Below are positions 2,504 to 45,206 of a stretch of 64,000 nucleotides of DNA, piece after piece; positions within the stretch are counted from its first letter, which is position 1, and every line of letters begins with the position of its first letter. Below the pieces are notes generated by a model, which saw only the letters and a list, made by a program, of their open reading frames with translations, searched no databases and had not been told where the DNA came from. The position numbers and the translations under genes are program-made. Origin of the DNA: a virus; the IMG/VR virus record IMGVR_UViG_3300045988_119396. One strand, given 5' to 3'.

Positions 2504-2563
2504 TTGACAAGGAAAAATAAAGAAGTTATAATTCAGTTGTCAAGTTAAGAGTACAGAGAATAA
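2504..2563 (+). promoter_or_regulatory. sigma-A-type promoter (TTGACA-17-TATAAT) with TTGACAA/TTGTCAA inverted repeat, followed by conserved leader GTTAAGAGTACAGAGAATAA
   Basis: -35 at 2504-2509; -10 at 2527-2532; IR at 2504-2510 and 2537-2543; leader motif at 2544-2563 (copy 1 of 6). Confidence 0.6.
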
Positions 2564-2605
2564 CTTGATAGCAAAAAATAAAATAATTTGAAAGAGGTAA
2601 TTATT

Positions 2606-3250
2606 ATGACAAACGAAGAAATTTTTGAAATTATGGGTGATGTGGTTAATGAATGGGGTTTATATATCGAAGATATAAATATATATACCAATGACCTAGA
2701 GGCTACTATTGTAGGTCAATATGATAGTAGAATTTACTACACTTACAACGATATAGATGAATTAGAAGGTAAGTCAGAAAAAGAAATTTTTGCAAGTTTA
2801 GAAAGTCAACTTATGGAAACACTAGAAGATTTTGATGCCGAAGAAGAGTTTGAAAACCTAGACATGAATGACGTAAGCATTTTAGAAAACATGAAACTTG
2901 ACGAAAAAGATTTTAAAGAAACCGTGTGGATGTATGAACAGAAACAGAAAGGTAAAGAAGTGTCAAGTTTTGAAATAGCTTTGACACATGAATTGCAAAA
3001 ACTAGGTCAATTAATGAATGATGAAGTTTATCCTGGTATGGTAGCTAGTTACGCTGTGGATATTTCAAGAGTTAGATGGTCAAATGAAATTTATGAGTAC
3101 ATGAAAGAAAAAAATATTGATATGACAAATGTAGATTATTATGACGTTAATTTCTTTAGCATTGTAAAAAGAGATAGTTTAATAACTGAGTTGTGGACTC
3201 AAGGCAAGAAAGATGAGGCAGTAAAACAATTTCAAAAACACGTATTTTAA
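2606..3250 (+). CDS. hypothetical acidic protein
   Basis: ATG after AGAGGTAATTATT. Confidence 0.5.
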   Translation: MTNEEIFEIMGDVVNEWGLYIEDINIYTNDLEATIVGQYDSRIYYTYNDIDELEGKSEKEIFASLESQLMETLEDFDAEEEFENLDMNDVSILENMKLDEKDFKETVWMYEQKQKGKEVSSFEIALTHELQKLGQLMNDEVYPGMVASYAVDISRVRWSNEIYEYMKEKNIDMTNVDYYDVNFFSIVKRDSLITELWTQGKKDEAVKQFQKHVF

Positions 3251-3288
3251 AGAAATATATATATTTAGAGTCTAGAGAAGAAATAAAA

Positions 3289-3346
3289 AAGGTATCTAGT
3301 CGGTAGAAAGTTTACAACTTGTAAGGTTCGAATCCTTACTACCTTA
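3289..3346 (+). ncRNA. tRNA-like minihelix: acceptor-like stem, AAGTTtacAACTT hairpin, T-arm TAAGG-TTCGAAT-CCTTA
   Basis: Canonical T-loop GGTTCGAATCC. Preceded by TCTAGAGAAGAA as in element 214-269. Followed by palindrome ATCCTAATTAGGAT and AGAAAAATAATTTT. Confidence 0.3.
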
Positions 3347-3395
3347 TATATCCTAATTAGGATAGAAAAATAATTTTATATAGGAGGTATCTATC

Positions 3396-4022
3396 ATGAA
3401 AAAGTTTATAGATACAAACAAAAAAGAATTTTTAGTAAGTGAGAATTTATATCACGTTGACAACTACATTGATGAGTTGAAAAGCAATGGTATTCATGTA
3501 GTAAGTAATGTAGATATTCTTGATTATACAGAGGCTTTAGAAGATATTACTGAGGCTTTTCTTGATATAGTTGATGATTTAGAAGAAGGAAATAATTATT
3601 TCAGACTACCAACTCAAGAAGAATTAATACAAAAGTGGGTAGATAGTGGGTGGAAAGATTTAAACGAGCCATTCGACAAAGAGTTAGCAACTAGCTTTTA
3701 TTATAGTGATTGCATACGTGACGCTTTGAGTGAAGAGCCTTGCGAGTTTCTAAGTTGGTTAGATAGTGAAAGTAGATTTTTCACTTATGAAACAGTAAGT
3801 GAAGGTATGGATTTCTATGACTTAATAGAATATCATCCACTAACCAATGTAGAAAGCGATATGTTGCTAACTTATGATGATGAATTAAGAAAAAATTTAT
3901 TTGATGATTGGTTTTTTGTAGAAGATAAAGAAGGCAACCAAGAAGAATTTAGCTTAGAAAGTTTTCAATCATTAAACATGTATATGTTAAAAAACTACAA
4001 TGCGTTAGAAGTAACTAAGTAA
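3396..4022 (+). CDS. hypothetical acidic protein
   Basis: RBS TAGGAGGT; track ORF. Confidence 0.5.
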   Translation: MKKFIDTNKKEFLVSENLYHVDNYIDELKSNGIHVVSNVDILDYTEALEDITEAFLDIVDDLEEGNNYFRLPTQEELIQKWVDSGWKDLNEPFDKELATSFYYSDCIRDALSEEPCEFLSWLDSESRFFTYETVSEGMDFYDLIEYHPLTNVESDMLLTYDDELRKNLFDDWFFVEDKEGNQEEFSLESFQSLNMYMLKNYNALEVTK

Positions 4023-4084
4023 AGAAAATTTTCTAAGAATTTCAGTAACAAAAAATAATTCAAATTAAAAGGGTGGTAATCAAT

Positions 4085-4282
4085 ATGTACGGACAAGAAT
4101 TTTACGGTGGTTTATTTATGATGAGTTTTGTTGCCTTGGTAATAATTTTGATGGGTAGCTATCATGCTGTTTGTTGGTTGTATAAAAGAAAAAGATTTAT
4201 TTTCAAGCTAATGTTATTCATACCATATACAATTTTGACTTTATTGTTGGTTGGTATCAAAGCATTAAACAATAGAATATAA
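4085..4282 (+). CDS. small membrane protein
   Basis: ATG after GGGTGGTAATCAAT; two hydrophobic helices. Confidence 0.45.
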   Translation: MYGQEFYGGLFMMSFVALVIILMGSYHAVCWLYKRKRFIFKLMLFIPYTILTLLLVGIKALNNRI

Positions 4283-4311
4283 AAAAATAATTATTAAAGG
4301 TGGTAATCAAA

Positions 4312-5139: not shown

Positions 5140-5211
5140 TAGAAAAATAAAAGAAAAATTAGTTAGAAAATCAATAACAAAAATAATTTAAAAATTAAAG
5201 GGTGGTTAATT

Positions 5212-5601: not shown

Positions 5602-5614
5602 AGGGTGGTTAATT

Positions 5615-6170: not shown

Positions 6171-6238
6171 TAGGGTAATTGGTATAATACAATAAAATAA
6201 TTTATTGCATTTTAAGGTTCGATTCCTTTTTATCCTAT
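6171..6238 (+). ncRNA. tRNA-like element: 7-bp acceptor-like stem (TAGGGTA/TATCCTA), CAATAAAataaTTTATTG hairpin, T-arm AAGG-TTCGATT-CCTT. Overlaps a TGGTATAAT -10-like box
   Basis: Third member of the T-arm element family. Followed by palindrome AGTTTGAAacacaTTCAAACT and AGAAAAATAATTTTAGGAG. Confidence 0.3.
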
Positions 6239-6287: not shown

Positions 6288-6884
6288 ATGCAAGCTATAC
6301 GATATGGTGAAGCCTTGAATTATCTGTTTGAGTTTTGCTTGTCTACTGGTAAAGAATTTCCGAAAGACTGGCGAAGGATAGACAATAGATTTTTCAATGG
6401 CATAAAGGATAACAAATTGAAAGATGAAGTGAAGATGTGTGTTGAGGTTATAAGCAACCATTCAATTAATAAGAATGGAAAAATTATACCTAAATCAAAA
6501 CGTGAAAGAAAAATTAATAGAGTGTTTAGACTGCAAAAAATAATCGAGCATGATATTAACTTTCATTACGGTAGACATACAAAAAGTATTTTAGAAAGAG
6601 AAGGATTACGTTTGAGCAACATGTACTCGGCATTAGGTAATCATGATGATTATATATCACAAAGAGAAAACGGTAAAAGAATTTTCTTGATTGATAGAGA
6701 AATGATTATCCACAAAACATATGATGATGTACACGTTGCTAGTAAAGAATACGGTGTCCAACCTTACAATGTTTACGATTGGTGCAATCGAGGTGCTTAT
6801 CGTTTTGATGGAAAAAGAATGATTAAAGCACATGTGTACAGTAATCTAGTTTGCAAAAATAAAGAATTTCATTATCAATTTTAG
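6288..6884 (+). CDS. putative DNA-binding or homing-endonuclease-like protein
   Basis: C-terminal VASKEYGVQPYNVYDWCNRGAYRFDGKRM resembles the HTH tail found at the C-terminus of phage homing endonucleases. Confidence 0.4.
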   Translation: MQAIRYGEALNYLFEFCLSTGKEFPKDWRRIDNRFFNGIKDNKLKDEVKMCVEVISNHSINKNGKIIPKSKRERKINRVFRLQKIIEHDINFHYGRHTKSILEREGLRLSNMYSALGNHDDYISQRENGKRIFLIDREMIIHKTYDDVHVASKEYGVQPYNVYDWCNRGAYRFDGKRMIKAHVYSNLVCKNKEFHYQF

Positions 6885-6923
6885 GAAACAAAAACAACTT
6901 GAATTTGAAAGGGTGTCTTAATT

Positions 6924-7202
6924 ATGGAAAACAGAGAAGAATTAGCAACAAAATTATTAAACGTATCACTAAAAGCAATCAACGACAAAGATTTAAACCT
7001 AGAAGAAAAGAGTGTTGTATACATTCTGGTAAACAAAATCTTAACTATTGGATATGAAAATGCAATGGGTGAACTACTACATGAAGAAAAATTTTATGAA
7101 GGCTTCGGCTTTACATACAACTATCTAACGTTAGTAACTAAGTTTTTGATGAGTAAATACTTTAATGAAATTCGTGAAATTTTAGATGGTGGTGAAAAAT
7201 AA
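6924..7202 (+). CDS. hypothetical protein
   Basis: RBS AAAGGGTG; track ORF. Confidence 0.4.
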   Translation: MENREELATKLLNVSLKAINDKDLNLEEKSVVYILVNKILTIGYENAMGELLHEEKFYEGFGFTYNYLTLVTKFLMSKYFNEIREILDGGEK

Positions 7203-7894
7203 TGGAAAAAGAAAAAATTTTGGTAGAAGTCAAACAATTTGAACGTGAGCTACAAATGCAAAACAGGGTGCTTGCAGCTTTAAATACAGTAGATGATGTT
7301 AAGTTAGTTGTTATTGAAAATGAATTATTAGATATGTTCAAAAAGAAATTAAACGTAAAATTAAGGGCTTGGGGTGCAAAAGAAGGTTTGGCAGACAACT
7401 ACATCAATACTGAATGGAAAGATAGACTTTTGGTAATGTCGCTAGACCAGAAAAAAATAAAAGACAGATTAGGTATTGGCAAGAAGAAACGTTTTGACTT
7501 TGACGCTTATAGTTTGGACGAAGTGATGATGATTGTTAAAAAAGAAATTATCCGTCAAGGTATCGAAGATAATCCATCACAAAGTCTGTATTACAAGAAT
7601 TTGAAAGTAGGTTCAGCACCAACTCCACCAGCAATTCAACGTAAATACGGTATGAATTGGAATGATGTACTGGATTACATTGGAATTGAACCAACACCAT
7701 TAAAAACATATGAAGATACAGAAGAAATATTACGTGAATTGAAAGCAGAAATTGAAAGATTGAATATGAAATATCCCTTTAGAAAAAATGAATATGAAGA
7801 AAAAAGAGATAAAGAAAACAGTCCTTCATCAACAACAGCAATAGTTCGTACTGGTAAGGGGTGGAGAGAAATTATTAATGAAATTATGGACTAG
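7202..7894 (+). CDS. hypothetical protein, paralog of 9044..9790
   Basis: Shares EVMMIVKKEIIRQGIEDNP...APTPP...MNWNDVLDYIGIE with the 9044 gene. Confidence 0.5.
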   Translation: MEKEKILVEVKQFERELQMQNRVLAALNTVDDVKLVVIENELLDMFKKKLNVKLRAWGAKEGLADNYINTEWKDRLLVMSLDQKKIKDRLGIGKKKRFDFDAYSLDEVMMIVKKEIIRQGIEDNPSQSLYYKNLKVGSAPTPPAIQRKYGMNWNDVLDYIGIEPTPLKTYEDTEEILRELKAEIERLNMKYPFRKNEYEEKRDKENSPSSTTAIVRTGKGWREIINEIMD

Positions 7895-10276: not shown

Positions 10277-10304
10277 TTGACAGTAGTTAAAAATGTGGTA
10301 GAAT
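10277..10304 (+). promoter_or_regulatory. promoter TTGACA-16-TGgTAGAAT
   Basis: -35 at 10277-82; extended -10 at 10296-10304; upstream of the 10350 gene. Confidence 0.55.
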
Positions 10305-10349
10305 TACGTTATAAAGTTAAAAGTTAAAAGAATAAAGGGGTGATACAGT

Positions 10350-11747: not shown

Positions 11748-13091
11748 GTGATGAAAATGAAGAGAACTTTTAATGAAATTCACATAAGAATGGTGACGCA
11801 TGAAGAGTATGAAAAAATCATGCGTCTTTGTCATAATCTGACTTATGAAGCAAAGAAAAAAGATGATATTGAATACCTAAATGAAATGCTAGATGAATAT
11901 TACGTTATTCGTGATTACTTTTATAGTCTACATTCTGACGAATATTGGTATAAAAGATTGGATGGAATGTCAGATGAGGAGTTTTTAAAAGAGAAAATTA
12001 AGATTGTTCATTTCCCTAATTACCAAAATATTTCTAATGAAATGGTACTTAGGAGGGCTGTGCGTAATATAAAAATCATAGACTATACAGTATATGCGGG
12101 CTACAATCTAGCGTTTAAAAATTCGTATGTTTTAAGAGCTAATGACCGAGATGTAAAAAAGAAGAAGATAGCTAATAAAATGACTTGGATAGGGGAGGTA
12201 GAAGAAAAAGAAGGTAAGCCTTTATCCAAAATACCAGTAGAAGATTTTTGTAAATATTTTTATTCAGAAAAAATAGCAACAGCTGGTTTTGAAAGAAGCG
12301 AGTTTTTGTGGTGTGTTAAAGGGTTATTGAAACTCGGTGGCATGACAGAAACAGAAATAGAAGAATACGCAGATACTTATATAAAGCATGTTGTAAAAGA
12401 AGTGGCAGAACGTTCTAATGCAGAACTTGAAAGCAGTCAAACTTTATATGGTGAAATAGATAAAGTATTAAGGACAGTATATAACAGGGGCAAAAGTTTT
12501 AAATATAGGTTTACTAATGCACGTGACCAAGTTATTATCTGCCTTATATTGTTAGGTGTAACAATAGATGAGTTCCAATACTTAGACGAGAAAGATTTCA
12601 ATTCAAAGGGCTTTAGTGATAACGGTGTCCTAACAATCAGAAATCTCAAGATGGGAACTAGAACTATAGAAATACCATTAGGTTTAAAGTTGAAAATAAA
12701 CGAATACTTAGGTATGGTGCATACAAAATCTTCTGATGGTTCTTTAATAGTCGGTGCAAGAGCTGTAAATAATGAGTATGTACGAATTACAGAAAGACAA
12801 GTGCGTGTTGTTGCGTTGAAATATGATGATAAGATAAAAAAAGCTACTGACCTAACACAAATAGGTAGAATGTTAAACTTTATGGACGTAGTTCGTGAGT
12901 ACGAAGAGGAACATGGTGAAAAACCAAAAGGTGATTATTTTGAAGATAAAGAGAATTTAGATTTAATAGCAAATAACATGAGAAGGTATGGCATGCTCCA
13001 TGCAGATGATTTTATTACTGTTGACGACATGAAATTTATAAAATTACAGTACCATAAGCTTTATTCAAATTATCTTGGGACTAGGGTCTAG
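11748..13091 (+). CDS. hypothetical protein (447 aa)
   Basis: Long ORF with RBS GGGGACAGGTG. Confidence 0.45.
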   Translation: MMKMKRTFNEIHIRMVTHEEYEKIMRLCHNLTYEAKKKDDIEYLNEMLDEYYVIRDYFYSLHSDEYWYKRLDGMSDEEFLKEKIKIVHFPNYQNISNEMVLRRAVRNIKIIDYTVYAGYNLAFKNSYVLRANDRDVKKKKIANKMTWIGEVEEKEGKPLSKIPVEDFCKYFYSEKIATAGFERSEFLWCVKGLLKLGGMTETEIEEYADTYIKHVVKEVAERSNAELESSQTLYGEIDKVLRTVYNRGKSFKYRFTNARDQVIICLILLGVTIDEFQYLDEKDFNSKGFSDNGVLTIRNLKMGTRTIEIPLGLKLKINEYLGMVHTKSSDGSLIVGARAVNNEYVRITERQVRVVALKYDDKIKKATDLTQIGRMLNFMDVVREYEEEHGEKPKGDYFEDKENLDLIANNMRRYGMLHADDFITVDDMKFIKLQYHKLYSNYLGTRV

Positions 13092-13127
13092 TAAACGTGT
13101 GAGAAATTGCACGTTTATTTTTTTGTT
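13092..13127 (+). terminator. rho-independent terminator AAACGTG...CACGTTT plus T-run
   Basis: 7-bp stem then ATTTTTTTGTTT. Confidence 0.55.
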
Positions 13128-13135: not shown

Positions 13136-13197
13136 TTGACTTATAATTATTGTATGTTATAATATAATAGTTGAGTTAAGAGTTTAGAGAATAAATG
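13136..13197 (+). promoter_or_regulatory. promoter TTGACT-16-TATAAT plus conserved leader GTTAAGAGTTTAGAGAATAAATG (copy 2)
   Basis: -35 at 13136-41; -10 at 13158-63; leader at 13175-13195; ATG start of the next gene at 13195. Confidence 0.65.
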
Positions 13198-13878
13198 ATT
13201 AACTTGCAAGAATTTGATAAAGGAGGTTTGTTTATCAATTTCGGAATTATGGCTTCCAGTGGTGGAAGTGGTAAAGATACAGTAGCAGATATGTTGTTGG
13301 CTTACCTAGCAAGCTATGATAGACATTCTAAAAAATACGCTTTAGCAGATGGTATTTATGATGTTTGTTATTCAATTCTAGGTAATGAAGATGACATTAA
13401 GCGTAGTCATCTACAAGGTGTAGGTGAGTCATTAAGACTTGTTTTTGGCAAAGATGTTTGGATTAACGATACAGACAAGAGAATTAAATCAGACCAACAA
13501 TTCCTTGATGATGTTATCGTAACAGACATTCGTAAGCTAAGAGAGTTCTCACATTACTTTGTAGATAAAGGTTTTGTTCCACTATATATCAAGGTTGATA
13601 AGGATATTGCCTTAGCACGTTTAAAAGAACGTGATGGTTATGTTCAAACAGAAAACTTTGGTAACAAAATCGAAAAGGAACTTAACTTTATTGAAAGTTT
13701 ACCTATTATCAAGACTAATATTCCAAATGTTAGCAAGGTAAATGTTCCAAACAATTCAGTGCTTAACAGCATTTATATCATTGACAATAACAGTGATGTA
13801 GATGAGTTGAGAGTTACAATCTCAATGTTGGTTGATAATTTAGCTCAGGAAGAAGGGTGGAATAAATTACAATGGTAG
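13195..13878 (+). CDS. deoxynucleoside monophosphate kinase-like P-loop protein
   Basis: GIMASSGGSGKDTVADMLL resembles the T4 gp1 dNMP kinase P-loop (SGKDT). Confidence 0.5.
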   Translation: MINLQEFDKGGLFINFGIMASSGGSGKDTVADMLLAYLASYDRHSKKYALADGIYDVCYSILGNEDDIKRSHLQGVGESLRLVFGKDVWINDTDKRIKSDQQFLDDVIVTDIRKLREFSHYFVDKGFVPLYIKVDKDIALARLKERDGYVQTENFGNKIEKELNFIESLPIIKTNIPNVSKVNVPNNSVLNSIYIIDNNSDVDELRVTISMLVDNLAQEEGWNKLQW

Positions 13879-20767: not shown

Positions 20768-20795
20768 TAGCACTCAAAAACGAGTGCTTTTTTCA
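20768..20795 (+). terminator. rho-independent terminator AGCACTCaaaaacGAGTGCT plus TTTTTT
   Basis: Stem-loop then T-run after the helicase gene. Confidence 0.6.
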
Positions 20796-20805: not shown

Positions 20806-20865
20806 TTGACTTAATATGTATATATGTTATAATATAATAGTTAAGTTAAGAGTTTAGAGAATAAA
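20806..20865 (+). promoter_or_regulatory. promoter TTGACT-16-TATAAT plus conserved leader GTTAAGAGTTTAGAGAATAAA (copy 3)
   Basis: -35 at 20806-11; -10 at 20828-33; leader at 20845-65. Confidence 0.65.
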
Positions 20866-20897: not shown

Positions 20898-21398
20898 GAT
20901 TTTCTGCTTAGTAACTCTTTCTACGAGCATTTAAAAAACGCAGAGTATAAGAATGGTTTAGATGTTGAATGGACATTAGATGATAATGACCCAGACCTAG
21001 TATGGTGCAGAGAATATCTAAGCAATCGTTATTTCTATCAAAGATATTTCGCATTTGCAAATATGGTGATGGAGAACTTAACTCTACGTACAAAACCAAC
21101 TCTCAAGCAAGTCCTTTCTAAATTTGCTGGTAAAAAGACGGACAAGCCATTCATAAAGAAGTTGAAAACAGATAAACACTTCAAAGAATATGCAAGTCTT
21201 GTCAAGAAACACCAAAATCATTACGTATTATCTAGTTCACTCGGCATAGATGATACTACTATCTTTTCTAGTAAGGCAAAAGCCCTTAAATATATCCGTA
21301 CAAATAATTTACAAGGCTATGTTCCTTACCCTTATACCAAGTTACTTTGTAAGAAATACTTGAGAGGGAGGAGGGACATTGATGGAAATTGTAACTGA
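20898..21398 (+). CDS. hypothetical protein; probable N-terminal extension of track ORF 21063..21398
   Basis: Frame is open from 20865. AAGGAAGGTGA RBS at 20889-20899. No canonical start, only a possible CTG at 20904. Confidence 0.35.
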   Translation, partial: DFLLSNSFYEHLKNAEYKNGLDVEWTLDDNDPDLVWCREYLSNRYFYQRYFAFANMVMENLTLRTKPTLKQVLSKFAGKKTDKPFIKKLKTDKHFKEYASLVKKHQNHYVLSSSLGIDDTTIFSSKAKALKYIRTNNLQGYVPYPYTKLLCKKYLRGRRDIDGNCN

Positions 21399-24385: not shown

Positions 24386-24417
24386 CCTTAACATTCGGGA
24401 AGTGTGCAAGGTTGTGA

Positions 24418-29199: not shown

Positions 29200-29258
29200 T
29201 TGACTTTTATTTTCTATGTGGTATCATAATATATGTAGTTAAGAGTTAAGAGAATAAA
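29200..29258 (+). promoter_or_regulatory. promoter TTGACT plus TATCATAAT -10, with conserved leader GTTAAGAGTTAAGAGAATAAA (copy 4, left flank of the tnpB island)
   Basis: -35 at 29200-05; -10 about 29222-30; leader at 29238-58. Confidence 0.6.
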
Positions 29259-29970
29259 CGAGCAACTCAAAGCTACAACAAAACAATTAAATAAATCTAT
29301 TATATGCGTTGAGCTTACAAAATGTGTCCTGTTAAGTAAGTCAACAATCGGATAGCTTAATGGCAGAGCGTACGAGTATGATAACGATACTTGTAAGGTT
29401 TGATGTTCAATTCATCAATCCGATATTTGTCACAGTGATTATTTGACAATAATGTTTATTTTGTACTCATGATGAGTACCTCCTTTTATTTAAACTTATT
29501 TTTCTGAATTATGTAGTACGTATACCTAATCACTGTGGCACACCTCCAAGTTAGATTGGTAGGTGGGTAAGATAACGGTATTGCCCATCTACAAAAGAGT
29601 TGGCACTTCTCCTACATAAAATTAGAATTAATGTTTCATTCCAGTCAGCTCTTTTGTAGGTGAACAAAACTTAGTTTGCCTAAACAATTTTCGCAAGTCT
29701 GAAAGGATTTGTACTTTCCAAATTGATGGTGTTCTATGGTTAGTATTTCTCTAGTCTATTTTGTTAATTATTTTAATACTAATTTTAATATCATCTCTTT
29801 AACACTTTTTATTTTTATATTATTTTGTTTTTATCTGAATGTCAGCCCATTAGGGTTGATATATCAGCGAGTAGACGGTTGACTTTTTGATATATTTTTT
29901 ACGACCTCCGATTTTATGCTTGTTTTTTAAGCTACTCGTTGATATATCCATCTTAGTCGGAGGTGTAAGC

Positions 29971-30186
29971 GTGGATAAATTAAGCAATATAATTGATAAG
30001 TTTCTCTTAACAAGAACATGGTATGTAATACAATGGCTGTTTATCATAGTTATTGCATTTGACCTAATCTTTTACAGCTACGGTTTCTGGACTAAGTTAT
30101 TCTATTTAACTGGTTTGACAGCTGGGTTTAGCAATATTAAGGAATGGCACAAGAAGCGTACCTATTCTGTTAAGAGAAAACATTAA
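29971..30186 (+). CDS. small membrane protein (72 aa)
   Basis: GTG after GGAGGTGTAAGC; inner start of track ORF 29887..30186. Confidence 0.3.
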   Translation: MDKLSNIIDKFLLTRTWYVIQWLFIIVIAFDLIFYSYGFWTKLFYLTGLTAGFSNIKEWHKKRTYSVKRKH

Positions 30187-30311
30187 TATACATACAACTC
30201 TAAAGCTATAACATATCTTAATTTTTTGCGTGATATGTATCGGCTTACTTTATAAAGTTAGTACAGTATAGAATATAAAATCATTACATCAATTTAGTGA
30301 AGTGAAGCGAG

Positions 30312-31481
30312 GTGAGTAAGATGTTAAAAGGTATTAAATTACGTATATACCCAAATAAGAGACAACGTGAACAGTTGGATATTATGTTTGGTAATAGTCG
30401 TTTTATTTGGAATAATATGTTAGCTACGATGAACGAGCGTTACAAGAATAACAAAGATTTACCTATGTTAACCGAGTATAAATTACATGTTCTACTAAAA
30501 CCTTTGAAAGTTGAATATCCATTCTTGAAAGAGAGTGATAGCACTGCTTTACAAGTAGATTGTCAAAATCTGTATCGAGCGTGGAAGAACTTCTTTAAAT
30601 CTGGTTTTGGTAAGCCTAGATTCAAGTCTAGGAAATTCTACAAGCAATCTTATACAGGTAAGTCGGCACCTAATGTTCATGTAGTAGCTAAAAGATATAT
30701 GAAACTACCTAAGCTAGGCTATATCAAAACTAGCAAAACATTTCAACTCACCGATTGCAAGATTAAACGTTATACGTTAAGTCATGGCACGACTGGTCGT
30801 TATTATTTATCTTTACAGGTAGAATGTGAAAATCAAGCATTGTTACCTAAGACAAATAAATCAGTTGGGTTAGATTTAGGTGTAGCAGATTTAGCTATTT
30901 CTTCTGATGGAATTAAATATGATACATTCCATGTGGGAGATTTAGAACATAAAGCTAACTTGTGGCAACGTAAGTTTTCTAAGCGTAGACATCAAGCTAA
31001 GGTTTGTATCGAAAGTGATAAATACTCAAAAGTATTAGTGCCTAGAGATTTTGATGATTTTAAAAATCTACAAAAGGCTCGAAAGCGCAAAGCGAGATTG
31101 CAAGCTAAGATAGCTAACAAACGTAAAGATTACTTGCATAAATTAACCACTACGTTAGTAAAGCAATACGATACTATCGTTATTGAAGATTTAAAGGCTA
31201 AGAATATGATGAAAAATCATAAACTAGCAAAAGCAATAGCTAACGGTTCATGGTATTTATTCCGTTCTATGTTGGAATATAAGTGTAATTGGTATGGGAA
31301 GCAACTAATAGTAGTTAGTCCTAAATACACTTCACAAGTCTGTTCTAACTGTGGTGTAAATACAGGCAAGAAATCGTTAGATGTTCGTGAGTGGACTTGT
31401 GATAATTGTGGTACACATCACGATAGAGATATTAACGCTGCTAGAAATATCTTGGCTAAAGGATTGAAAGAAGTAGCTTAA
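30312..31481 (+). CDS. tnpB: TnpB (OMEGA RuvC-like RNA-guided nuclease, IS200/IS605 OrfB)
   Basis: RuvC-I GLDLGV, RuvC-II IVIEDL, zinc finger CSNCG...CDNCG, Ruv[14 protein letters not shown]. Confidence 0.85.
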
Positions 31482-31764
31482 ATAAGCGCAAAAGGTACGG
31501 GACGTGCCTCGGTAATATATCTAGGTTCTGTAAGTTAGGCTTAGTCCTAAATACTACCTAGAGTTCCCAGAAACCACCGTTTTTAATAGGTGTGTAGTCC
31601 ATATAAGGCAGCTTGATGGTTGCTAAAGGGAACGGGTTGGTTTTTCACATCCTTTCAATGAATACAGATAATTAACCCCTAATACAACTTACAATACTGA
31701 CACAGTTTTTGTCCCGTTCTCTCTAGGAGCTATCAAAAGCTCTCCCAAAACAAGTCTACTACAT
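31380..31764 (+). ncRNA. candidate TnpB omega-RNA scaffold (overlaps the tnpB 3' end and right end)
   Basis: Structured ORF-free DNA 3' of tnpB. Long-range pairing GGGAACGGG (31627-35) with CCCGTTC (31712-18); right-end-proximal hairpin. Confidence 0.3.
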
Positions 31765-31787
31765 GTTAAGAGTTTAGAGAATAAATG
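31765..31787 (+). promoter_or_regulatory. conserved leader GTTAAGAGTTTAGAGAATAAATG (copy 5, right flank of the tnpB island; no consensus promoter upstream)
   Basis: Identical to the leaders at 13175 and 20845. Confidence 0.5.
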
Positions 31788-31969
31788 GTAGACATTTGGT
31801 ATGTAAGGCAGTAGAAAAATGCTAACACACCACAGCATTTACACTAATCAGACGTCCTTGCATACCACGCTCACAGACTTTGGCGCAACGAGGAATGTGG
31901 GAGCGGATAGCTGAGTCACAGGTGGTGTTGTGACAGAGAGCTATGCGTAATTATTTATCTTAGTTGGTA

Positions 31970-32042
31970 GTCATGTGGTGTATATGTGTAGCACACTCGT
32001 CCTTAACACGAGAGAAGTAGGGTTCAACTCTCTACCATGACA
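31970..32042 (+). ncRNA. tRNA-like (73 nt) with anticodon loop CCTTAAC (anticodon UUA, would read UAA) and degenerate D-arm; possible suppressor-tRNA relic
   Basis: Acceptor 6/7 bp; anticodon stem CTCGT/ACGAG at canonical positions 27-31 and 39-43; T-arm TAGGG-TTCAACT-CTCTA. No GG in the D-loop; C at position 33. Confidence 0.25.
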
Positions 32043-32160
32043 TAGAGGCGAAATGTCTCGAAACAAGCATATCTTGTATGGTGATATACATTGTTATGTA
32101 TTGATTGGTTATTAATCAATCTCATATAAATACTCCTTTTTTTTAAATTATTTTTTTGGT

Positions 32161-32212
32161 TACCGCAGATGTTAAAAGGTGCATTTTACGAGTTCGACTC
32201 TCGATGTGGTAA
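32161..32212 (+). ncRNA. tRNA-like minihelix (acceptor, hairpin, T-arm CGAG-TTCGACT-CTCG)
   Basis: 7-bp acceptor-like stem TACCGCA/TGTGGTA with one G-U. Confidence 0.2.
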
Positions 32213-32363
32213 TTGGGGTAGAGCATGAATGCCCCGAAGCACAATAACGGTAAGTGCGTAGATTTACGTATTTTGCGTGACATTAAAAAGTTAATTCATG
32301 AACAGGTTCATTACGACTTACGTGGTTGGTTCATGAATAAGATTTCCTCCTTTTAAAAAGGTA

Positions 32364-32425
32364 TACGGTGTAGCTCAAATGGTAGAGCAAGGAGGCTGAT
32401 ATGGGTTCGAGTCCCATCACCGTAA
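32364..32425 (+). ncRNA. tRNA-like RNA lacking an anticodon arm
   Basis: Perfect 7-bp acceptor TACGGTG/CACCGTA; canonical D-arm GCTCaaatggtaGAGC; T-arm ATGGG-TTCGAGT-CCCAT. Only 12 nt (AAGGAGGCTGAT) where the anticodon arm should be. Confidence 0.35.
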
Positions 32426-33088
32426 TTTTGTTCTTTGACAATCGTATACTTTACTATTCAAACAGCAATTCAAGCATAACCAGTTGTATAAGGGGTCTAA
32501 TCAACCCTTGCTGGATATGTACCTGTAATTCGTAGTAGATGTAGTCTGAGTGATAGCTTAGACAAGTCGTGAGATGGTTAGTAATATCTATTGAACCTAG
32601 TAAAAGCTAGGACGTAGGGTACGTATGTGGATACATGTGACGTTAGTGTTTCACTGGCTGTTGGCATTAGATAATAGACGCTTACAGTGTGAGAATAACC
32701 CATTGACAGCTTAGTGTGGCAACTAAGTGTTGCGTTGGGAATGCCAAGAATAATGTTTGCCTTGACGCTTAGGAAACTAAGCTATAACAACAGAGGTGAG
32801 AACAAGTAGGGTAATGGCAATATATACAGTTAACTTGTGCATTACAAACGACAGATAAGAGATAATTTTGTAAATATTCTGAATGATAACCTGAAAGTTG
32901 GGATTTACCATAATCGCCACATTTTTAAAAAGCAAAAGGAAGTGATGAGGTAGCTCTTTGTCACTCAGACCTTTTGAGATGTTCACATAATAAACGGTAG
33001 CATGTTGAAGCAGAGTGAAAGCTCATGTTTGAATTGCTATTTGAGTAGTGAAGCATATGATATATCAAAGAACATATAACTATATTTA

Positions 33089-33130
33089 CTCACCTCGGTA
33101 GTTATGTTCTGGTTCAACTCCAGAAGTGAG
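33089..33130 (+). ncRNA. T-arm minihelix (CTCAC...TCTGG-TTCAACT-CCAGA...GTGAG)
   Basis: Same T-arm plus short acceptor architecture as the other elements. Confidence 0.2.
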
Positions 33131-33500
33131 CTTTGTACCAACTCCCGACACACCTCTCATCAAGGCAGTACCGTTATGCGTACTTTAAAGTGGGACGGGT
33201 GCGGTACGGCATCTCGTTAGTACGTTACTCGAGGGTGCGGAAGGTGTTTTGCAAGGGACATACTATGCCAAGCGTGGAGGTTGATTACCTCGCAGCAGAT
33301 AGCTACTGTTGTCATACGTGCGAGCTTGGTGTGTGTAGTTAGGTGTGCCGCCTATTTAGTAAGTTGTCTTAAAGTGGCAAGATAGCTTTTCGATTATAAG
33401 CCCGTTAGCCAGCTATCCCTTCGGTGCAGTGGAGTTACTCGCTAGACTTCGCTAGGGAGCAGATTGCAGAGGCGACTGTGATTTATGCTTGATGGCTGAC
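33130..33500 (+). ncRNA. relatively GC-rich structured non-coding segment of unknown identity
   Basis: No credible ORF. Many inverted repeats, e.g. GATAGCT...AGCTATC at 33383-33418. Composition differs from the flanking AT-rich DNA. Confidence 0.25.
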
Positions 33501-33507
33501 TATTTTT

Positions 33508-33597
33508 GGTAAGTTACTCAAGTTGGTGAAGAGGACAGTTTGCTAAACTGTTAGGTCTGCGATTGTAGACGCAAGGGTTCGAGTCCCTTACTTACCT
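33508..33597 (+). tRNA. tRNA-Ser(GCU), class II with long variable arm
   Basis: Acceptor GGTAAGT/ACTTACC; D-arm CTC-aagttggtgaa-GAG; anticodon stem ACAGT/ACTGT with loop TTGCTAA; variable arm GTCT...AGAC; T-arm AAGGG-TTCGAGT-CCCTT. Confidence 0.65.
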
Positions 33598-33845
33598 TTA
33601 ACAATTAAATATTAAAGTTCGTGTGCATATACAGGAATGATTTCACATTGTCATGTTTACCCTTGCAAGTGAAAACACAAGCAGCGTTACAATTACATAT
33701 TATTGTTTGTCTAGTAATTGATGTAATTGTTCATCGTCAGTTAGCTGTTACTCTGGTTTAAGGTCTATCAATTCTTGTTCGCATTGCTTTATTAGTTCTA
33801 CTTCTGGGAGTTATGTTCTAATCATTCCTGTACATACACACGAAT

Positions 33846-34577
33846 GTGAGAAAGAAGTTGGTTAGTATTATCTATGTAATTGGTAGTATTTCTGCTGGCA
33901 AATCTAGCTTAACGGAGATACTCGCTAAAGATTTAAATAGTACCCCATACTACGAAGATGTAAACAATGGCTTAATCAAAGGCATGTTGGAACATTTTTA
34001 CAGTGCTGGTGCAGAAAGTAGAAAACAAGTTAGTGCTATGTTACAGGTGGCTTTCTTAACGGTTAGATACCAACAATTAAAGAAGGCTATCGTTGAAGAA
34101 AATGCTATATTAGACTCCAATCTAGTAAGCGATTATATCTTAGCACGAAATATATATGAACGAGGGGAAATGGACGAAGACGCTTATAACGTTTACATGA
34201 CATTGAACCAAGAAATGCAATCTAATGTTAATGGTAGTCCTTTTAACGGTTTTCCAGATTTAGTAGTATATATTGATATTGATGAAGAAGCTGAAATTGA
34301 CTCAATACAAGCACGTGGTCGTGATATGGAAGATGTACGTAAAGACCCTAAGTTAGTTGATTATTATCATTCAGTGAATAGAGCATACAAGCGTTGGTAT
34401 GATGGGTTCTACCAAGCACCAGTTGTACGCATTGACCGTTCACAATACGATTTCGTAAACAACCTATCCGACCGTAATGAAGTACTTAATCTAATTGAAC
34501 AAAAGCTAGTTGATTTAGGTAAATTGACGCAAGATGAGTTCGATAAAATCAAAGCAAAACGTGATAAGGAGGTGTAG
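33846..34577 (+). CDS. deoxynucleoside kinase (dAK/dGK/dCK family)
   Basis: P-loop IGSISAGKSSL; DRS/ERS-like region LDSNLVSDYILARNIYERGEMDE. Confidence 0.65.
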   Translation: MRKKLVSIIYVIGSISAGKSSLTEILAKDLNSTPYYEDVNNGLIKGMLEHFYSAGAESRKQVSAMLQVAFLTVRYQQLKKAIVEENAILDSNLVSDYILARNIYERGEMDEDAYNVYMTLNQEMQSNVNGSPFNGFPDLVVYIDIDEEAEIDSIQARGRDMEDVRKDPKLVDYYHSVNRAYKRWYDGFYQAPVVRIDRSQYDFVNNLSDRNEVLNLIEQKLVDLGKLTQDEFDKIKAKRDKEV

Positions 34578-37982: not shown

Positions 37983-38105
37983 AAGAAGGGTAGGTAATTA
38001 ATATGCGTGATTTGGTTGGTTGTGTAGGTTGTTTGTTCTATATTATTTTGGCTATTTTTAGTATTGGCTTGCTTATGTTTTCGTTCATTGAGATGAGCTT
38101 GTAGA
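37983..38105 (+). CDS. small hydrophobic peptide (40 aa)
   Basis: ATG after AAGAAGGGTAGGTAATTAAT; sequence MRDLVGCVGCLFYIILAIFSIGLLMFSFIEMSL. Confidence 0.3.
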
Positions 38106-38122
38106 TGTATTATAATATATTT

Positions 38123-38238
38123 AACTAATGCGATAACTATTAAGTGGTTATTTTAGGTATTAGTTTCAGAAGAATGTTAGATTGAGGTTGAAAAACTTAA
38201 AACCTTACGAGGCTATGCTATTTTGCATAGTCTTTTTA
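38123..38238 (+). ncRNA. array unit 1 short RNA
   Basis: Core GTTTCAGAAGAATGTTAG at 38163-38180; terminator CTATGCtattttGCATAG plus TCTTTTTAT. Confidence 0.45.
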
Positions 38239-38255
38239 TGTGGTATAATAGGGTT

Positions 38256-38347
38256 ACCGCTATTAATGTGGTTTTTTGTTTCAGAAGAATGTAAACAATG
38301 TGGTTATACCTAGAAGGCTGCGTTTTGATACGTAGTCTTTTTATTTT
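38256..38347 (+). ncRNA. array unit 2 short RNA
   Basis: TGgTATAAT at 38241-49; core GTTTCAGAAGAATGTAAA; terminator CTGCGttttgataCGTAG plus TCTTTTTATTTT. Confidence 0.45.
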
Positions 38348-38372
38348 GATTGGAATGTGGTATAATACCAAT

Positions 38373-38444
38373 GTACCGAAAAGGTATTATATATTATTTC
38401 AAAAGAATGTTAAATCGGGACTTCACTTCGGTGGAGTCTTTTTA
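38373..38444 (+). ncRNA. array unit 3 short RNA
   Basis: TGgTATAAT at 38358-66; core TTTCAAAAGAATGTTAAA; terminator GACTTCACttcgGTGGAGTC plus TTTTTAT. Confidence 0.45.
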
Positions 38445-38481
38445 TGTAGTTATGATTGTAGCAATGTGGTATAATATAAGT

Positions 38482-38569
38482 AACTAATCTGCACAGGAGG
38501 ATTAGTTTCAGAAGATTGTTAAACAATGAGGTAAGACTCAAGGCTATGCTTAATGTGTAGCCTTTTTGT
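38482..38569 (+). ncRNA. array unit 4 short RNA
   Basis: TGgTATAAT at 38467-75; core AGGAGGATTAGTTTCAGAAGATTGTTAAA; terminator GGCTAtgcttaatgtgTAGCC plus TTTTTGTAT. Confidence 0.45.
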
Positions 38570-38605
38570 ATGGTATTGCCTCCATATACATGGTATAATA
38601 TAGAT

Positions 38606-38696
38606 ACTGAAATGCCTCATAGGAGGATTAAGTTTCAGAGGAATGTTAAATTGAGTTAAAACTCGTAGTCCCACAGCAGTGTGGGGCTTTTTATTT
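38606..38696 (+). ncRNA. array unit 5 short RNA
   Basis: TGgTATAAT at 38591-99; core AGGAGGATTAAGTTTCAGAGGAATGTTAAA; terminator CCCACAgcagTGTGGG plus GCTTTTTATTT. Confidence 0.45.
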
Positions 38697-38977
38697 ACAA
38701 ATAATGGTAGCGGTGTTATAATAAAACCATAGTAAATATAGTATAAATCCATAATCTTGTTTTGTGAGATTACTTGAGCGAGCCTTTCACTGATGTTTGG
38801 GCCATCCCCTTTCCTATTTTTTGTTATATTTTTCTCAGCTATTTAGTGTTATAATATAGTTGTAATGATGACAAGGAGTAACAGTTCCTTACTTTGTGGC
38901 TTGAACAGAACAACCACATGTATGACGATTTGGGCGGGACTTAGTTCCGTCCTTTTGTTTATTTAGAGGTGATTTAA

Positions 38978-42543: not shown

Positions 42544-42774
42544 TTATTCACTTATTGGGAAATACGTTCCTTCATGTAATTGATACTCTTCAACTTTAAT
42601 CGAGTTTGGAAAATATTCTGTTTCTCTAGCTCGTTCAATTTGCTCAGCTACTTCATCAGCATGTTTCTTTGTTGTGTAGATACCAATTATATGTTGAACA
42701 ATTTCTGTTCTAGTGTGATATATCTCAGTTTGGGTAAAATGTTTGATACCAGTAACTATGAAGATTTTATTCAT
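42544..42774 (-). CDS. hypothetical protein
   Basis: Track ORF. Confidence 0.35.
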   Translation of the reverse strand: MNKIFIVTGIKHFTQTEIYHTRTEIVQHIIGIYTTKKHADEVAEQIERARETEYFPNSIKVEEYQLHEGTYFPISE

Positions 42775-43321
42775 TTAAATCTTCCTCTTTAACAAATACA
42801 CCATTAATCATTTTCCCTTTTCGGTCTTTGATTTCGTTGTATGCCATTTCCAAAGTTTCTTCCAGGCTAGTGCCATATTCTTTAGCAATGTCATGTAGGC
42901 ATACCATAGTGCGTTCTACTGAAAGATGTTCAAGTTTTTTAGTTCTTTTTCTATTGTATGCACTAATAATTCGTGAACTACTGTGAACCAAATGATAAAC
43001 CAAATTGTTGACATCAAAACTACCTCTATCCTTTGATTCTTGTGCAAGGTCATCGTATTCAGTCCAGAAGTCACCTTCTTGTTCTACTTGTTTCTTGAGG
43101 TCGATACCACGAATTAAACAATAGATGATTAATGTGACTTGGTAATCTCCTAAGCTATCTTTTACACCAGAGTCGCCATTAATATTATTAGCCATCATGG
43201 CAAGCAATAATTCCCCTTGTTCTTCAATTAATTTTGTGTATTGAGTACGTGCCTCAACAGTATCTAAATTTCTATCCTTAGCCCATTGTTCCACGTTACC
43301 AAGTAATTTTAAGTATTCCAT
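42767..43321 (-). CDS. MazG-like nucleotide pyrophosphohydrolase
   Basis: QWAKDRNL...YTKLIEEQGELLLAMMANN is a typical MazG/NTP-PPase helix pair. Confidence 0.5.
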   Translation of the reverse strand: MEYLKLLGNVEQWAKDRNLDTVEARTQYTKLIEEQGELLLAMMANNINGDSGVKDSLGDYQVTLIIYCLIRGIDLKKQVEQEGDFWTEYDDLAQESKDRGSFDVNNLVYHLVHSSSRIISAYNRKRTKKLEHLSVERTMVCLHDIAKEYGTSLEETLEMAYNEIKDRKGKMINGVFVKEEDLNE

Positions 43322-43324
43322 TGT

Positions 43325-43729
43325 CTACACCTCTAAAATGATTTCTTCTGTTTCTTGTTCAGCCTTAATAATAAGCTTATTCTTACCTCTTAATTCATCA
43401 ACAAAATCTCTAAACTCATCTACTGAATTAAATTCCAACAGTTTATTGTTGTCTAAGACAACCGTTGGAGCATCAATCATATCACTACGTGTCTTTAATT
43501 CAGTTACGTATGTTACAGGTACAGAACCTTTGATTTTTACACGTAAAGCAAAAGCTCTCACATTATCGTTTTGTTTGTCTGTAAACATCGCATGAATTGA
43601 TTTGATTACATCGCCCCTAACACCATAAGATGAAGGGTTATAACCATATTCAGCTGCAATGTCTAAGACTTGGTTGTACCTGTCTAATAATTCCTTACGT
43701 ACTTCTAACTTAAATGATGTCATTGTCAT
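43325..43729 (-). CDS. hypothetical protein
   Basis: Track ORF. Confidence 0.4.
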   Translation of the reverse strand: MTMTSFKLEVRKELLDRYNQVLDIAAEYGYNPSSYGVRGDVIKSIHAMFTDKQNDNVRAFALRVKIKGSVPVTYVTELKTRSDMIDAPTVVLDNNKLLEFNSVDEFRDFVDELRGKNKLIIKAEQETEEIILEV

Positions 43730-44408
43730 TTACCTCGTTTTCATCTGCCCAGATTACATTCAATTCTTGTGCAAATTCATCTGTCTTAGGAAGTTCAATT
43801 ACTTCTGAAAACCTCAAATAATCAGATGTATTGTTGCGAATGAAGTAAGCATGAGTAGCCTTACGAGTTAAACTATCACATTGAATAGCAACACCGTTCA
43901 TACCACGAATAGCCATATTAAAGATTAAGAATGGCATTGCTCGGTCTGATAGTTCTTCTACTTGATACCAGTAAGCACGAGGGTTATAAGTCATAACTGG
44001 TGATGTAAGTAATTGTACAAGTGATTGACGACTTGCTACTGGTTTATATGTTCTATCTTTTTGCCATTTAGCAATTAAGATACTACCCGTACCAGCAGCT
44101 GGTTCATAGTAAATGTTGTCACTCTTGTCTTCTCCGCTAACCAGTGCATTGAGTAAGTTAGCAACGGAGTCTGGAGTAAAATCTTGTTTCTTAGATTTAC
44201 GTTCTGCTTGTTCCTTTTGGAAATACTCTCTGAACCAATCACGACTTACATCTGTTTCTACATTCAAGAAACGCTTAAACATCTCTTCACGTTCCTTATC
44301 ATCTAACATGACGTTCATCACCTTTTGTGGTGTTTTATATGCGTCATTTACCCCTAATAATTCATTAATTTCTTTTACACTAAACTCTTTCATGTTTAGC
44401 ACCTCCAA
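43710..44408 (-). CDS. N6-adenine methyltransferase-like protein lacking a recognisable NPPY motif
   Basis: QDFTPDSVANLLNALV plus EPAAGTGSILI (motif X/I of HsdM-like MTases). No NPPY/DPPY found. Confidence 0.45.
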   Translation of the reverse strand: MEVLNMKEFSVKEINELLGVNDAYKTPQKVMNVMLDDKEREEMFKRFLNVETDVSRDWFREYFQKEQAERKSKKQDFTPDSVANLLNALVSGEDKSDNIYYEPAAGTGSILIAKWQKDRTYKPVASRQSLVQLLTSPVMTYNPRAYWYQVEELSDRAMPFLIFNMAIRGMNGVAIQCDSLTRKATHAYFIRNNTSDYLRFSEVIELPKTDEFAQELNVIWADENEVNDNDII

Positions 44409-44621
44409 GTTTTGTTAAAAAATTCTCGGCACGTATTTAACGGTAGTGCCTATGTCCCATCACGCTCTCAAAAACGTGTGAACTCTCAAATCATGGTTAT
44501 GGGACGGTGTGTTTTTAAGTGACGTAACTTTTAAAACCATGCCTTGTTTTATTAGTTTTCGCAAAGAACAGCTAACTTTGCAACGACCTATCAATCTTTT
44601 ACAATTAATAGACCCAGTGCG

Positions 44622-45134
44622 TTATTGTAAGGCTAACGCAGAACCATGCCCAAAACGTGCCACAACAGCACTACATAATGCCAAGAACAAATCATCAGCA
44701 AATGTATTTACTTTACCATCTTCATTATCAAGTTTCTTAGCCAACCCTAGCTTAACCTTATCACCTAAACCAAAGTTAGAACTTGAGATAGTACCGTATA
44801 GTTGTGTAATGTTAAACGCTAAGGCTTCATCAACACCAAACATACCTAAGTCATTTGCAATGATAGTATGTAACACTGGAGTTAATTTGTTTTCTGCTGC
44901 TAGGTTATCTAGCTCAAACCCAATAGCTAAGATATTAAGCACTTCACGTTTCTTTAACACGTTCTTTAATTCACTACCAAATTGTTCTACTGTAACATCT
45001 GGATAGTACTCATGCTGCAATTCGTAGGCTACTTTACCTACTTCGATTTCATTAATGCCACGCTTGTCTAGCTCTTGCATAACAAAATCATGCAATCCTT
45101 TATCTGGGTACTTTACCCCTTTTGTTGCTACCAA
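44622..45134 (-). CDS. hypothetical protein
   Basis: TTG start after GGAGGTGAAAA; driven by minus-strand copy 6 of the promoter-leader module. Confidence 0.45.
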   Translation of the reverse strand: MVATKGVKYPDKGLHDFVMQELDKRGINEIEVGKVAYELQHEYYPDVTVEQFGSELKNVLKKREVLNILAIGFELDNLAAENKLTPVLHTIIANDLGMFGVDEALAFNITQLYGTISSSNFGLGDKVKLGLAKKLDNEDGKVNTFADDLFLALCSAVVARFGHGSALALQ

Positions 45135-45145
45135 ATTTTCACCTC

Positions 45146-45206
45146 CATTTATTCTCTAAACTTTTAATTACATTTATTATAATATCACACCAAAATAAAA
45201 AGTCAA
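45146..45206 (-). promoter_or_regulatory. promoter TTGACT-N17-TATTATAAT plus leader AAAAGTTTAGAGAATAAATGG (copy 6, minus strand)
   Basis: Reverse complement of 45146-45206 matches the + strand modules. Confidence 0.6.

Follow-up and report, generated by a model that had tools for sequence, protein, structure and literature searches.

Repeated early promoters with a common leader element in a Ligilactobacillus salivarius phage-plasmid related to pMP1046B

The phage-plasmid P1 carries dispersed asymmetric C1 operators, and the early promoters of phage T5, such as PN25, have a conserved purine-rich initial transcribed region that acts on promoter escape from approximately +1 to +20. In Bacillus, a 5′ stem-loop or a 5′-proximal ribosome protects mRNA against 5′-dependent decay; 5′ stabilisers of Firmicutes include the aprE leader stem-loop, the ermC and SP82 5′ stabilisers and the cryIIIA STAB-SD. 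Mycobacteriophage L5 and other Cluster A phages contain short asymmetric operator/stoperator sites that are dispersed and oriented with transcription (PMC6550527), and the T4-type phages RB49 and phi1 carry promoter-early stem-loop (PeSL) cassettes (PMC2839356). Here we analyze a stretch of 64,000 nucleotides (nt) from the virus record IMGVR_UViG_3300045988_119396 (the window), in which a leader element of 21 nt without dyad symmetry (consensus RTTAARAGTYWAGAGAAYAAA) recurs downstream of strong promoters. Together, these sites form a family of duplicated cassettes, in which an early promoter is joined to this leader, in an L. salivarius phage-plasmid of the pMP1046B type. They belong to a known kind, exemplified by early promoter cassettes that recur, asymmetric operators that are dispersed, and 5′ stabilisers; this member comes from a new host lineage and has an unusual fixed position after the -10 hexamer and a dual DNA/RNA anatomy.

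The window is ~94% identical to pMP1046B over the longest shared block, and 95% identical over an 8-kb query of a plasmid collection. pMP1046B is a circular element of 129,218 bp from strain JCM1046 of L. salivarius, a gut bacterium. It is a phage-plasmid, because its annotation places ParA and RepA beside tape measure, holin and tail genes. It was named a “putative chromid” in the original paper, which did not describe its promoters (PMC4165912), and no such description was found in the papers that mention pMP1046B or among the titles returned by phage-plasmid and salivarius searches. Close relatives also include three 126-129 kb contigs from IMG/VR, one of which is pMP1046B itself, and helicase homologues delineate a broad family of 100-145 kb elements in Lactobacillaceae, Enterococcus and Vagococcus. 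A megablast of the window against phage records gave no match, its DnaE-type polymerase is at most 38% identical to that of any deposited phage, and a related-locus query with 50889-51515 found no relatives.

The leader element resembles the L5 and P1 sites in being short, asymmetric and repeated in many copies that follow transcription in short intergenic regions, some in early promoters and others promoterless, with a lineage-specific consensus; some of these systems also live in extrachromosomal prophages. Unlike those sites, 8 of the ~14 copies in pMP1046B are promoter-linked, at one fixed position after the -10 hexamer, and the element has two parts and a greater length (21 nt), with an operator role that is putative. 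The L5 sites are mostly not associated with promoters and spread over the whole genome, whereas no copy lies among the structural genes here. The PeSLs are likewise ~100-nt repeated cassettes with an AT-rich stretch, a strong sigma-70-type early promoter and a stem-loop, which span the stop codon of one gene to the Shine-Dalgarno sequence (SD) of the next and are similar beyond the promoter hexamers. However, they lack a leader motif conserved in the transcribed region, the stem-loop is a terminator rich in G/C around the promoter, and the PeSLs are found beside ORFans of hyperplastic regions and at indels, in different host and phage lineages; the present cassettes are not boundary markers, with only 2 of ~22 window/pMP1046B breakpoints within 60 nt of one. 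The Firmicute stabilisers offer, as alternatives, a stem-loop a few nt from the predicted 5′ end or a 5′-near ribosome-binding site, as predicted here, but they are single-gene elements that share no loop sequence, whereas one family here serves seven operons of the window (eight in pMP1046B); the stabilising role of the cassette hairpin is putative. The T5 promoters are also very strong host-type early promoters with a common purine-rich region over the first ~20 transcribed bases. In contrast to them, the conserved block here reaches +25 and promoterless copies exist.

A pattern search of the window with up to three mismatches identified eight copies of the consensus, compared to 0.09 expected, and none of 100 shuffles attained eight. 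Six had been listed in the first-pass annotation of this DNA. All six are real and lie where it placed them when the sites are read directly, but it overlooked the copies at 10316-10335 (plus strand) and 55620-55601 (minus strand), both of which have promoters. A position-weight scan added two degenerate promoterless copies, at 191-210 and 3263-3282. The features are as follows.

191-210, plus strand: degenerate promoterless copy ATTAAAAGTCTAGAGAAGAA; a tRNA-like element begins 4 nt later.
2504-2532, plus strand: c2544 promoter TTGACA-17-TATAAT, a 12/12 match to consensus.
2544-2563, plus strand: c2544 leader motif GTTAAGAGTACAGAGAATAA; predicted 5′-terminal hairpin 2539-2547/2561-2569 (-7.0 kcal/mol, z -2.7), kept in four orthologues.
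3263-3282, plus strand: degenerate promoterless copy ATTTAGAGTCTAGAGAAGAA, directly 3′ of a stop codon; tRNA-like element 6 nt later.
10277-10304, plus strand: c10316 promoter TTGACA-16-TAGAAT, TG-extended, absent from the first list.
10316-10335, plus strand: c10316 leader motif GTTAAAAGTTAAAAGAATAA; no hairpin (0 kcal/mol), SD GGGGTGAT immediately after.
13090-13119, plus strand: intrinsic terminator closing the preceding operon, before c13175.
13136-13163, plus strand: c13175 promoter TTGACT-16-TATAAT, TG-extended.
13175-13194, plus strand: c13175 leader motif, exact consensus; predicted hairpin 13173-13179/13199-13205, z -2.6; real SD at 13219-13226.
20769-20788, plus strand: intrinsic terminator 3′ of a DnaB-like helicase gene, before c20845.
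20806-20833, plus strand: c20845 promoter TTGACT-16-TATAAT, TG-extended.
20845-20864, plus strand: c20845 leader motif, exact consensus; predicted hairpin 20842-20849/20869-20876, z -3.9.
29200-29227, plus strand: c29238 promoter TTGACT-16-TATCAT, TG-extended, driving a tRNA gene (29347-29425) and not an mRNA.
29238-29257, plus strand: c29238 leader motif GTTAAGAGTTAAGAGAATAA; predicted two-tier hairpin 29234-29240/29271-29277 plus 29243-29247/29264-29268, z -3.8.
31765-31784, plus strand: promoterless leader copy inside a stem GTCTAC.../...GTAGAC (~31754-31794), 5′ of tRNAs and a ROOL RNA.
45149-45168, minus strand: c45168 leader motif ATTAAAAGTTTAGAGAATAA; no hairpin, SD GGAGGTG immediately after, TTG start of a PgpA-like gene.
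45179-45206, minus strand: c45168 promoter TTGACT-16-TATTAT, TG-extended.
55601-55620, minus strand: c55620 leader motif GTTAAGGGTTCAGAGAATAA; predicted 10-bp hairpin 55620-55611/55597-55588, z -3.4; drives a DUF1064 gene.
55632-55659, minus strand: c55620 promoter TTGATT-16-TATAAT, TG-extended, absent from the first list.
55676-55702, minus strand: intrinsic terminator upstream of c55620.

The promoters are near-consensus and sigma-A-type, as first described: the -35 hexamer is TTGAC(A/T) or TTGATT, the spacer is 16-17 nt, and the -10 hexamer is TATAAT, TAGAAT, TATCAT or TATTAT, with a TG extension in 6 of the 7 promoter-linked window copies. A consensus scan placed the cassette promoters at or near the top among the intergenic, correctly oriented matches of the window. 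The distance from promoter to motif had been given as 15-19 nt, which is incorrect: from the -10 hexamer to the G of GTTAAGAG, it is 10-11 nt in all seven copies, and the same in an additional copy at pMP1046B 9109. With the start site inferred ~7 nt after the -10 hexamer, this gap puts the motif at approximately +4 to +24. The copy at 31765 has no promoter at the canonical distance, as already stated, and the terminators reported upstream of the second and third copies (13090-13119 and 20769-20788) were also found; another, at 55702-55676, precedes c55620, so that three of the seven promoter-linked copies have an upstream terminator. In full, a cassette often begins with this terminator and comprises a T-rich stretch followed by a promoter close to consensus, mostly of the extended -10 type, and then the 21-nt element. 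c13175, c20845 and c55620 share 81-110 nt at 80-84% identity, terminator tail and spacer included.

A scan of the whole of pMP1046B returned 16 matches, ~14 of which were counted as copies; a weak match at 113685(-), at a gene start, and the window match inside the polymerase gene (60651) were excluded. Eight are promoter-linked (9109, 11943, 23023, 25881, 33545, 42686, 56422(-) and 67955(-)), five are promoterless and follow transcription (9305, 12653, 43790, 46079 and 125832(-)), and one, at 24404(-), runs against local transcription, compared to 13 along it. Every counted copy is intergenic, and the early/replication arms contain all except one of them, with no credible copy among the structural genes (~76-125 kb). 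Two classes of promoter lack the motif. The first comprises four promoters beside a helix-turn-helix (HTH) repressor gene in pMP1046B, each with the palindrome TTGTCGA-N5-TCGACAA 4-5 nt after the -10 hexamer; the window contains no copy. The four lie at 6840-7320 of pMP1046B (L128), outside the window, with the repressor gene at 6335-6694 on the minus strand, and this is probably the immunity region. The second class is an array of small extended -10 promoter units at 38088-38700 of the window, where five units are arranged in tandem at the convergence of two gene arms. Each unit consists of an extended -10 promoter TGGTATAAT, 60-90 nt with a conserved GTTTCAGAAGAATGTTAAA, and an intrinsic terminator, and could encode a small RNA or a mini open reading frame (ORF).

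A degenerate-motif scan of viral contigs gave 117 loci, among which the real relatives are three related contigs only, and an exact-motif scan of representative genomes gave six single matches in unrelated metagenome-assembled genomes, which we regard as chance. Rfam covariance models detected nothing at any copy, either at gathering thresholds over the whole window or at E≤1 in 1-4000 and 29200-34000. By eye, the likeness of the motif to a CodY box or a PyrR site is weak (9 of 15 positions) or absent. No antisense RNA partner for the leader loop was found in the window. Neither was a TnpB or IscB guide matching the motif, and this candidate was rejected, as the insertion at 30195-31602 and the HEARO RNA border unrelated sequence.

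Orthologues of the seven promoter-linked families were aligned (3-5 genomes each), and changes per site were counted as follows.

Hexamer at -35: 0.07.
Promoter spacer: 0.30.
Hexamer at -10: 0.05.
Motif positions 1-8: 0.07.
Motif positions 9-14: 0.26.
Motif positions 15-21: 0.06.
The 20 nt after the motif: 0.21.

The GTTAA and GAAYAAA blocks are conserved like the -35 and -10 hexamers, and the middle of the motif drifts like the spacer. Across 36 distinct sequences, T2, T3, A5, G8, A12, G15, A16, A17, A19 and A20 are conserved at 94% or more, and variation at positions 1, 6, 7 and 13 is almost only between purines. As judged from these alignments, the motif is bipartite and under selection. 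The families c2544, c10316, c29238 and c45168 have unrelated spacers and flanks, yet retain at least 17 of 20 motif positions, and the similarity is therefore not merely shared descent. Across four genomes, 25 nt of the tRNA-driving c29238 cassette are free of substitutions despite variable flanks. Translation is thus not the constraint, since the motif is fully conserved in all four of these orthologues. The motif is kept in close relatives of the window element, drifts in those at 75-84% and is absent from relatives with a helicase identity of 55% or below.

Some arguments originally made for the element relied on coding, and these do not survive comparison with relatives. The ATG of the motif had been taken as the start of the kinase-like gene at 13195; pMP1046B and a second relative, however, have orthologues that either lack this ATG or carry it out of frame, preceded by a stop. 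At 27 nt downstream there is a strong AAAGGAGG, and RefSeq starts the orthologue at a later ATG. The N-terminal coding sequence said to be conserved after two copies (TISLQAHNKEGDF versus MINLQEFDKGGLF) is nucleotide homology of a duplicated cassette of 110 nt with 80% identity: its “KGG” is AAAGGAGG and its “KEG” is AAGGAAGG, both SD sequences read as codons. As this duplication extends through the SD, the N-terminal likeness amounts to leader and SD homology. The gene after c20845 apparently starts with CTG at 20904, 4 nt after AAGGAAGGTGAT, and the orthologue in L131 has a TTG there. At 45146, in agreement with the first description, the motif ATG does overlap the SD of the TTG-initiated PgpA-like gene. 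Thus, the proposal of a control element holds in that the motif is non-coding and tied to strong sigma-A promoters of early/replication operons, although the coding arguments for it were wrong. The suggestion of a middle-class signature, in the sense of a phage-specific promoter, is not supported, as no conserved second box is present downstream and seven of the eight copies sit on a complete host-type promoter. The further suggestion of a factor-binding leader is plausible.

When folded from the predicted start, c2544, c13175, c20845, c29238 and c55620 are predicted to form 5′-terminal hairpins with z-scores of -2.6 to -3.9, and c10316 and c45168 form none. In these five of the seven promoter-linked families, the hairpin begins at +1 to +6 of a start inferred from the -10 spacing. 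GTTAA is always located within the 5′ arm, and families that are not homologous have 3′ arms of different sequence and at different distances. The hairpin is retained in every orthologue of the five families. Paired cells amount to 92.5% and 95.5% in two hairpin alignments; interior stem changes all keep pairing, mostly via G-U and once by G-C to A-U, and only loop-closing pairs break. A 75% relative retains an 8-bp 5′ hairpin (CAGAUUAA/UUAAUUUG) with an unrelated loop, and a 78% relative retains the hairpin in what appears, by eye only, to be a different register.

The position of the SD varies with the hairpin. It directly follows the motif in both hairpin-less window families, and also at pMP1046B 9109, for which a fold was not computed; in the five hairpin families, it is 25-40 nt further on or absent. 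Within the window, a hairpin is present in 5 of 5 families with a distant or absent SD and in 0 of 2 with an adjacent one. Two routes to one protected 5′ end would explain this pattern. Depending on the copy, the conserved blocks are paired, in a loop, or unstructured beside the SD.

We tentatively favor, at somewhat less than an even chance, a dispersed asymmetric operator for a putative trans-acting regulator, overlaid on a 5′ stabiliser hairpin. The GTTAA and GAAYAAA blocks would form the binding site of one regulator that couples all cassette operons, most readily a DNA-binding repressor acting on dispersed asymmetric operators. At promoter-linked copies, the bound repressor might block initiation or escape, and at promoterless intergenic copies it might act as a roadblock, as in mycobacteriophage L5 or P1. 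The hairpin, or the SD immediately after the motif in hairpin-less copies, would shield the 5′ end of the transcript from 5′-dependent decay. Recognition as DNA fits better than as RNA, because the blocks occupy differing RNA contexts across copies. A trans-acting factor is favored since conservation of the second block equals that of the -10 hexamer, although a hairpin that only stabilises would not require any particular sequence. An operator is also plausible at this site, as the element places the TTGTCGA-N5-TCGACAA palindrome at the same promoter-proximal position elsewhere. In the carrier state, eight near-consensus promoters that precede polymerase, helicase and nuclease genes would have to be silenced.

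Several observations weigh against the operator reading. No candidate DNA- or RNA-binding regulator was detected among 30 window ORFs scanned against Pfam, and the sole HTH repressor observed in pMP1046B is associated with separate, palindromic sites. The copies of the 78% lineage (L124) have each drifted in a different way, which a co-evolving set of operators should not do. The second block is changed in some orthologues, for example to AGTGAATAAA, AGTGGATAAA or GAACAAA in the c55620 family, with the hairpin intact, and the promoterless copies of the window are weakly conserved (16-17 bits, compared to 31 bits for the paralogous pMP1046B 9305). The direct repeat of 7 nt inside the motif, GTTAAGA GTTTAGA, does not amount to a helical repeat, and the majority of pMP1046B copies are promoter-linked. 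On the RNA side, covariation in the stems is not significant, the observed score being attained by 207 and 394 of 500 shuffles in small alignments of 5 and 6 distinct sequences, respectively, and the transcription start sites are predicted only.

The motif defines the early-promoter regulon of a barely studied family of phage-plasmids, 120-140 kb in size. If it is an operator, it would represent a second regulatory tier beside the CI-like repressor and a direct handle to find the regulator. The cassettes are also ready-made strong promoter and 5′ untranslated region (UTR) parts for engineering of L. salivarius, in which the design of a hairpin or a 5′-proximal SD constitutes a testable rule of transcript stability.

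Alternatively, the motif may act solely in the transcript, as a 5′ UTR module without any DNA-binding factor, providing a protected 5′ end and an A-rich single-stranded GAAUAAA for a ribosome, a nuclease or an RNA-binding protein. We consider this possible, if doubtful. It would account for hairpins that are significant and kept in orthologues and in the 75% relative, for stem changes that pair via G-U and so are workable only in RNA of this strand, and for the complementary distribution of hairpin and adjacent SD. All but one copy, promoterless ones included, follow transcription, and the second block is similar to the A-rich part of AAGAATTAAAGGGTGG, a translation-initiation cassette that recurs in this element. 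However, a single mode of RNA binding is hard to picture for blocks that are paired in some copies and unpaired in others, and the motif is perfect before a tRNA gene, where translation and mRNA stability are irrelevant. A plain stabiliser also needs no conserved sequence, and in L131 the hairpin persists without the motif.

It is unlikely, although less so than the proposals that follow, that the family is only a plain duplicated cassette, in which a strong promoter and its initial transcribed sequence spread by common descent and/or gene conversion. Selection would then act only on promoter output, through a purine-rich start as in the T5 early promoters, and on the hairpin, with no factor in trans, and the cassettes might double as recombination linkers like the T4-type PeSLs. 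The long identity among c13175, c20845 and c55620 agrees with this, as does the ~70% purine content of the non-template strand of the motif, which has almost no C. The assembly contig of the 78% relative stops exactly within the leader motif (L124 10560-10620), as expected because a dispersed repeat would break short-read assemblies, and two indel boundaries between the window and pMP1046B are within 60 nt of a cassette (10194/10248 and 45261). On the other hand, most of the ~22 synteny breakpoints are away from cassettes, and the four families with unrelated flanks keep the motif nonetheless. The second block (~+19 to +25) is also beyond the usual promoter-escape region, and promoterless copies exist.

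In an improbable variant, the leader would be read as RNA by a factor of the phage-plasmid and, with the tRNA-like elements described below, would form a system of RNA punctuation and processing. If true, this system would set the fate of all early transcripts, with a single recognition sequence common to primary 5′ ends and internal cleavage sites. A nut-like antitermination site, or a sigma-dependent pause element, that loads an antiterminator on early transcription complexes is very improbable, even though the motif lies directly downstream of each early promoter and terminators separate the operons. The nut-like version requires a linear box and a boxB-like hairpin, GUUUA-GAGAA-UAAAC, with a GNRNA pentaloop. 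This inner stem is predicted in c13175 and c20845, but at stem positions 9-11 T is replaced by C or A in some sequences while positions 19-21 stay invariant and do not compensate, and the loop G is A in some copies. In the pause version, GAGAAT serves as a -10-like hexamer, but it becomes GTGAAT in 4 of 6 c55620 orthologues, losing the critical A, and GAGAAC in several copies, losing the critical T. Orthologue variation thus disfavors both the boxB-like inner hairpin and the sigma-pause hexamer. Finally, we give almost no credence to the motif itself being a promoter of a phage-encoded sigma factor or RNA polymerase (tandem early and middle promoters), since, despite a weak resemblance of GTTAAGA to the SPO1 late -35 box CGTTAGA and the promoterless copies before RNA genes, no conserved second box lies 15-20 nt downstream, no sigma factor or RNA polymerase gene is present among the scanned ORFs or in the pMP1046B annotation, and the fixed phasing with the -10 hexamer would be left without explanation.

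Other RNA and translation elements were observed around the cassettes. tRNA-like elements are located in mRNA intergenic regions at 215-268, 3289-3346 and 6172-6236 of the window, each with an acceptor-like stem and a T-arm AAGGTTCGAATCCTT, and are not called by ARAGORN or the Rfam tRNA model. Two of the three start 4-6 nt after a degenerate leader motif, and similar elements are found in the distant relatives L126 and L127. A translation-initiation cassette, AAGATTAAGAATTAAAGGGTGGTAATT, precedes many genes (1827, 4038, 5167, 5850, 10132 and 10608 on the plus strand, 45626-45659 on the minus strand), with an A-rich part similar to the second leader-motif block. In the distant relatives L127, L137, L161, L162 and L171, which have no leader motif, several strong promoters carry a conserved AAACAAAAGTA directly 5′ of the -35 hexamer TTGACA, and inverted repeats bracket the -10 hexamer of some promoters.

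The TnpB-type insertion sequence (IS) at 30195-31602 is recently mobile, because the site is empty in two relatives and a third has the insertion elsewhere. In pMP1046B, a 30-nt GTGTTACCCATATGTGCGTGGGGACAGACT occurs three times at 45921-46075, 3′ of a TnpB gene, with spacers of 32-34 nt, and the last repeat is immediately followed by a leader copy, ATATGTAGTTAAGAGTTTAG, that matches the c29238 cassette. These repeats could represent multiple copies of the right end of an IS, with the motif read at the guide position. The corresponding place in the window is occupied by the ROOL RNA (32456-33043, 245 bits), with tRNAs on both sides. A tRNA with anticodon tta, of the ochre-suppressor type, is called by ARAGORN at 31970-32042 (Rfam tRNA, 32 bits). 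Also above the Rfam gathering score are a Listeria rli28 RNA at 55712-55891 (67 bits) and a salivarius-1 RNA at 44452-44505(-) (50.6 bits). Just 3′ of the DUF1064 gene driven by c55620, the region 53479-55089 on the minus strand contains a HEARO RNA (54883-55088) and a 309-residue RRXRR/HNH ORF (53898-54827), a short IscB-like protein, both in a segment that has no counterpart in pMP1046B.

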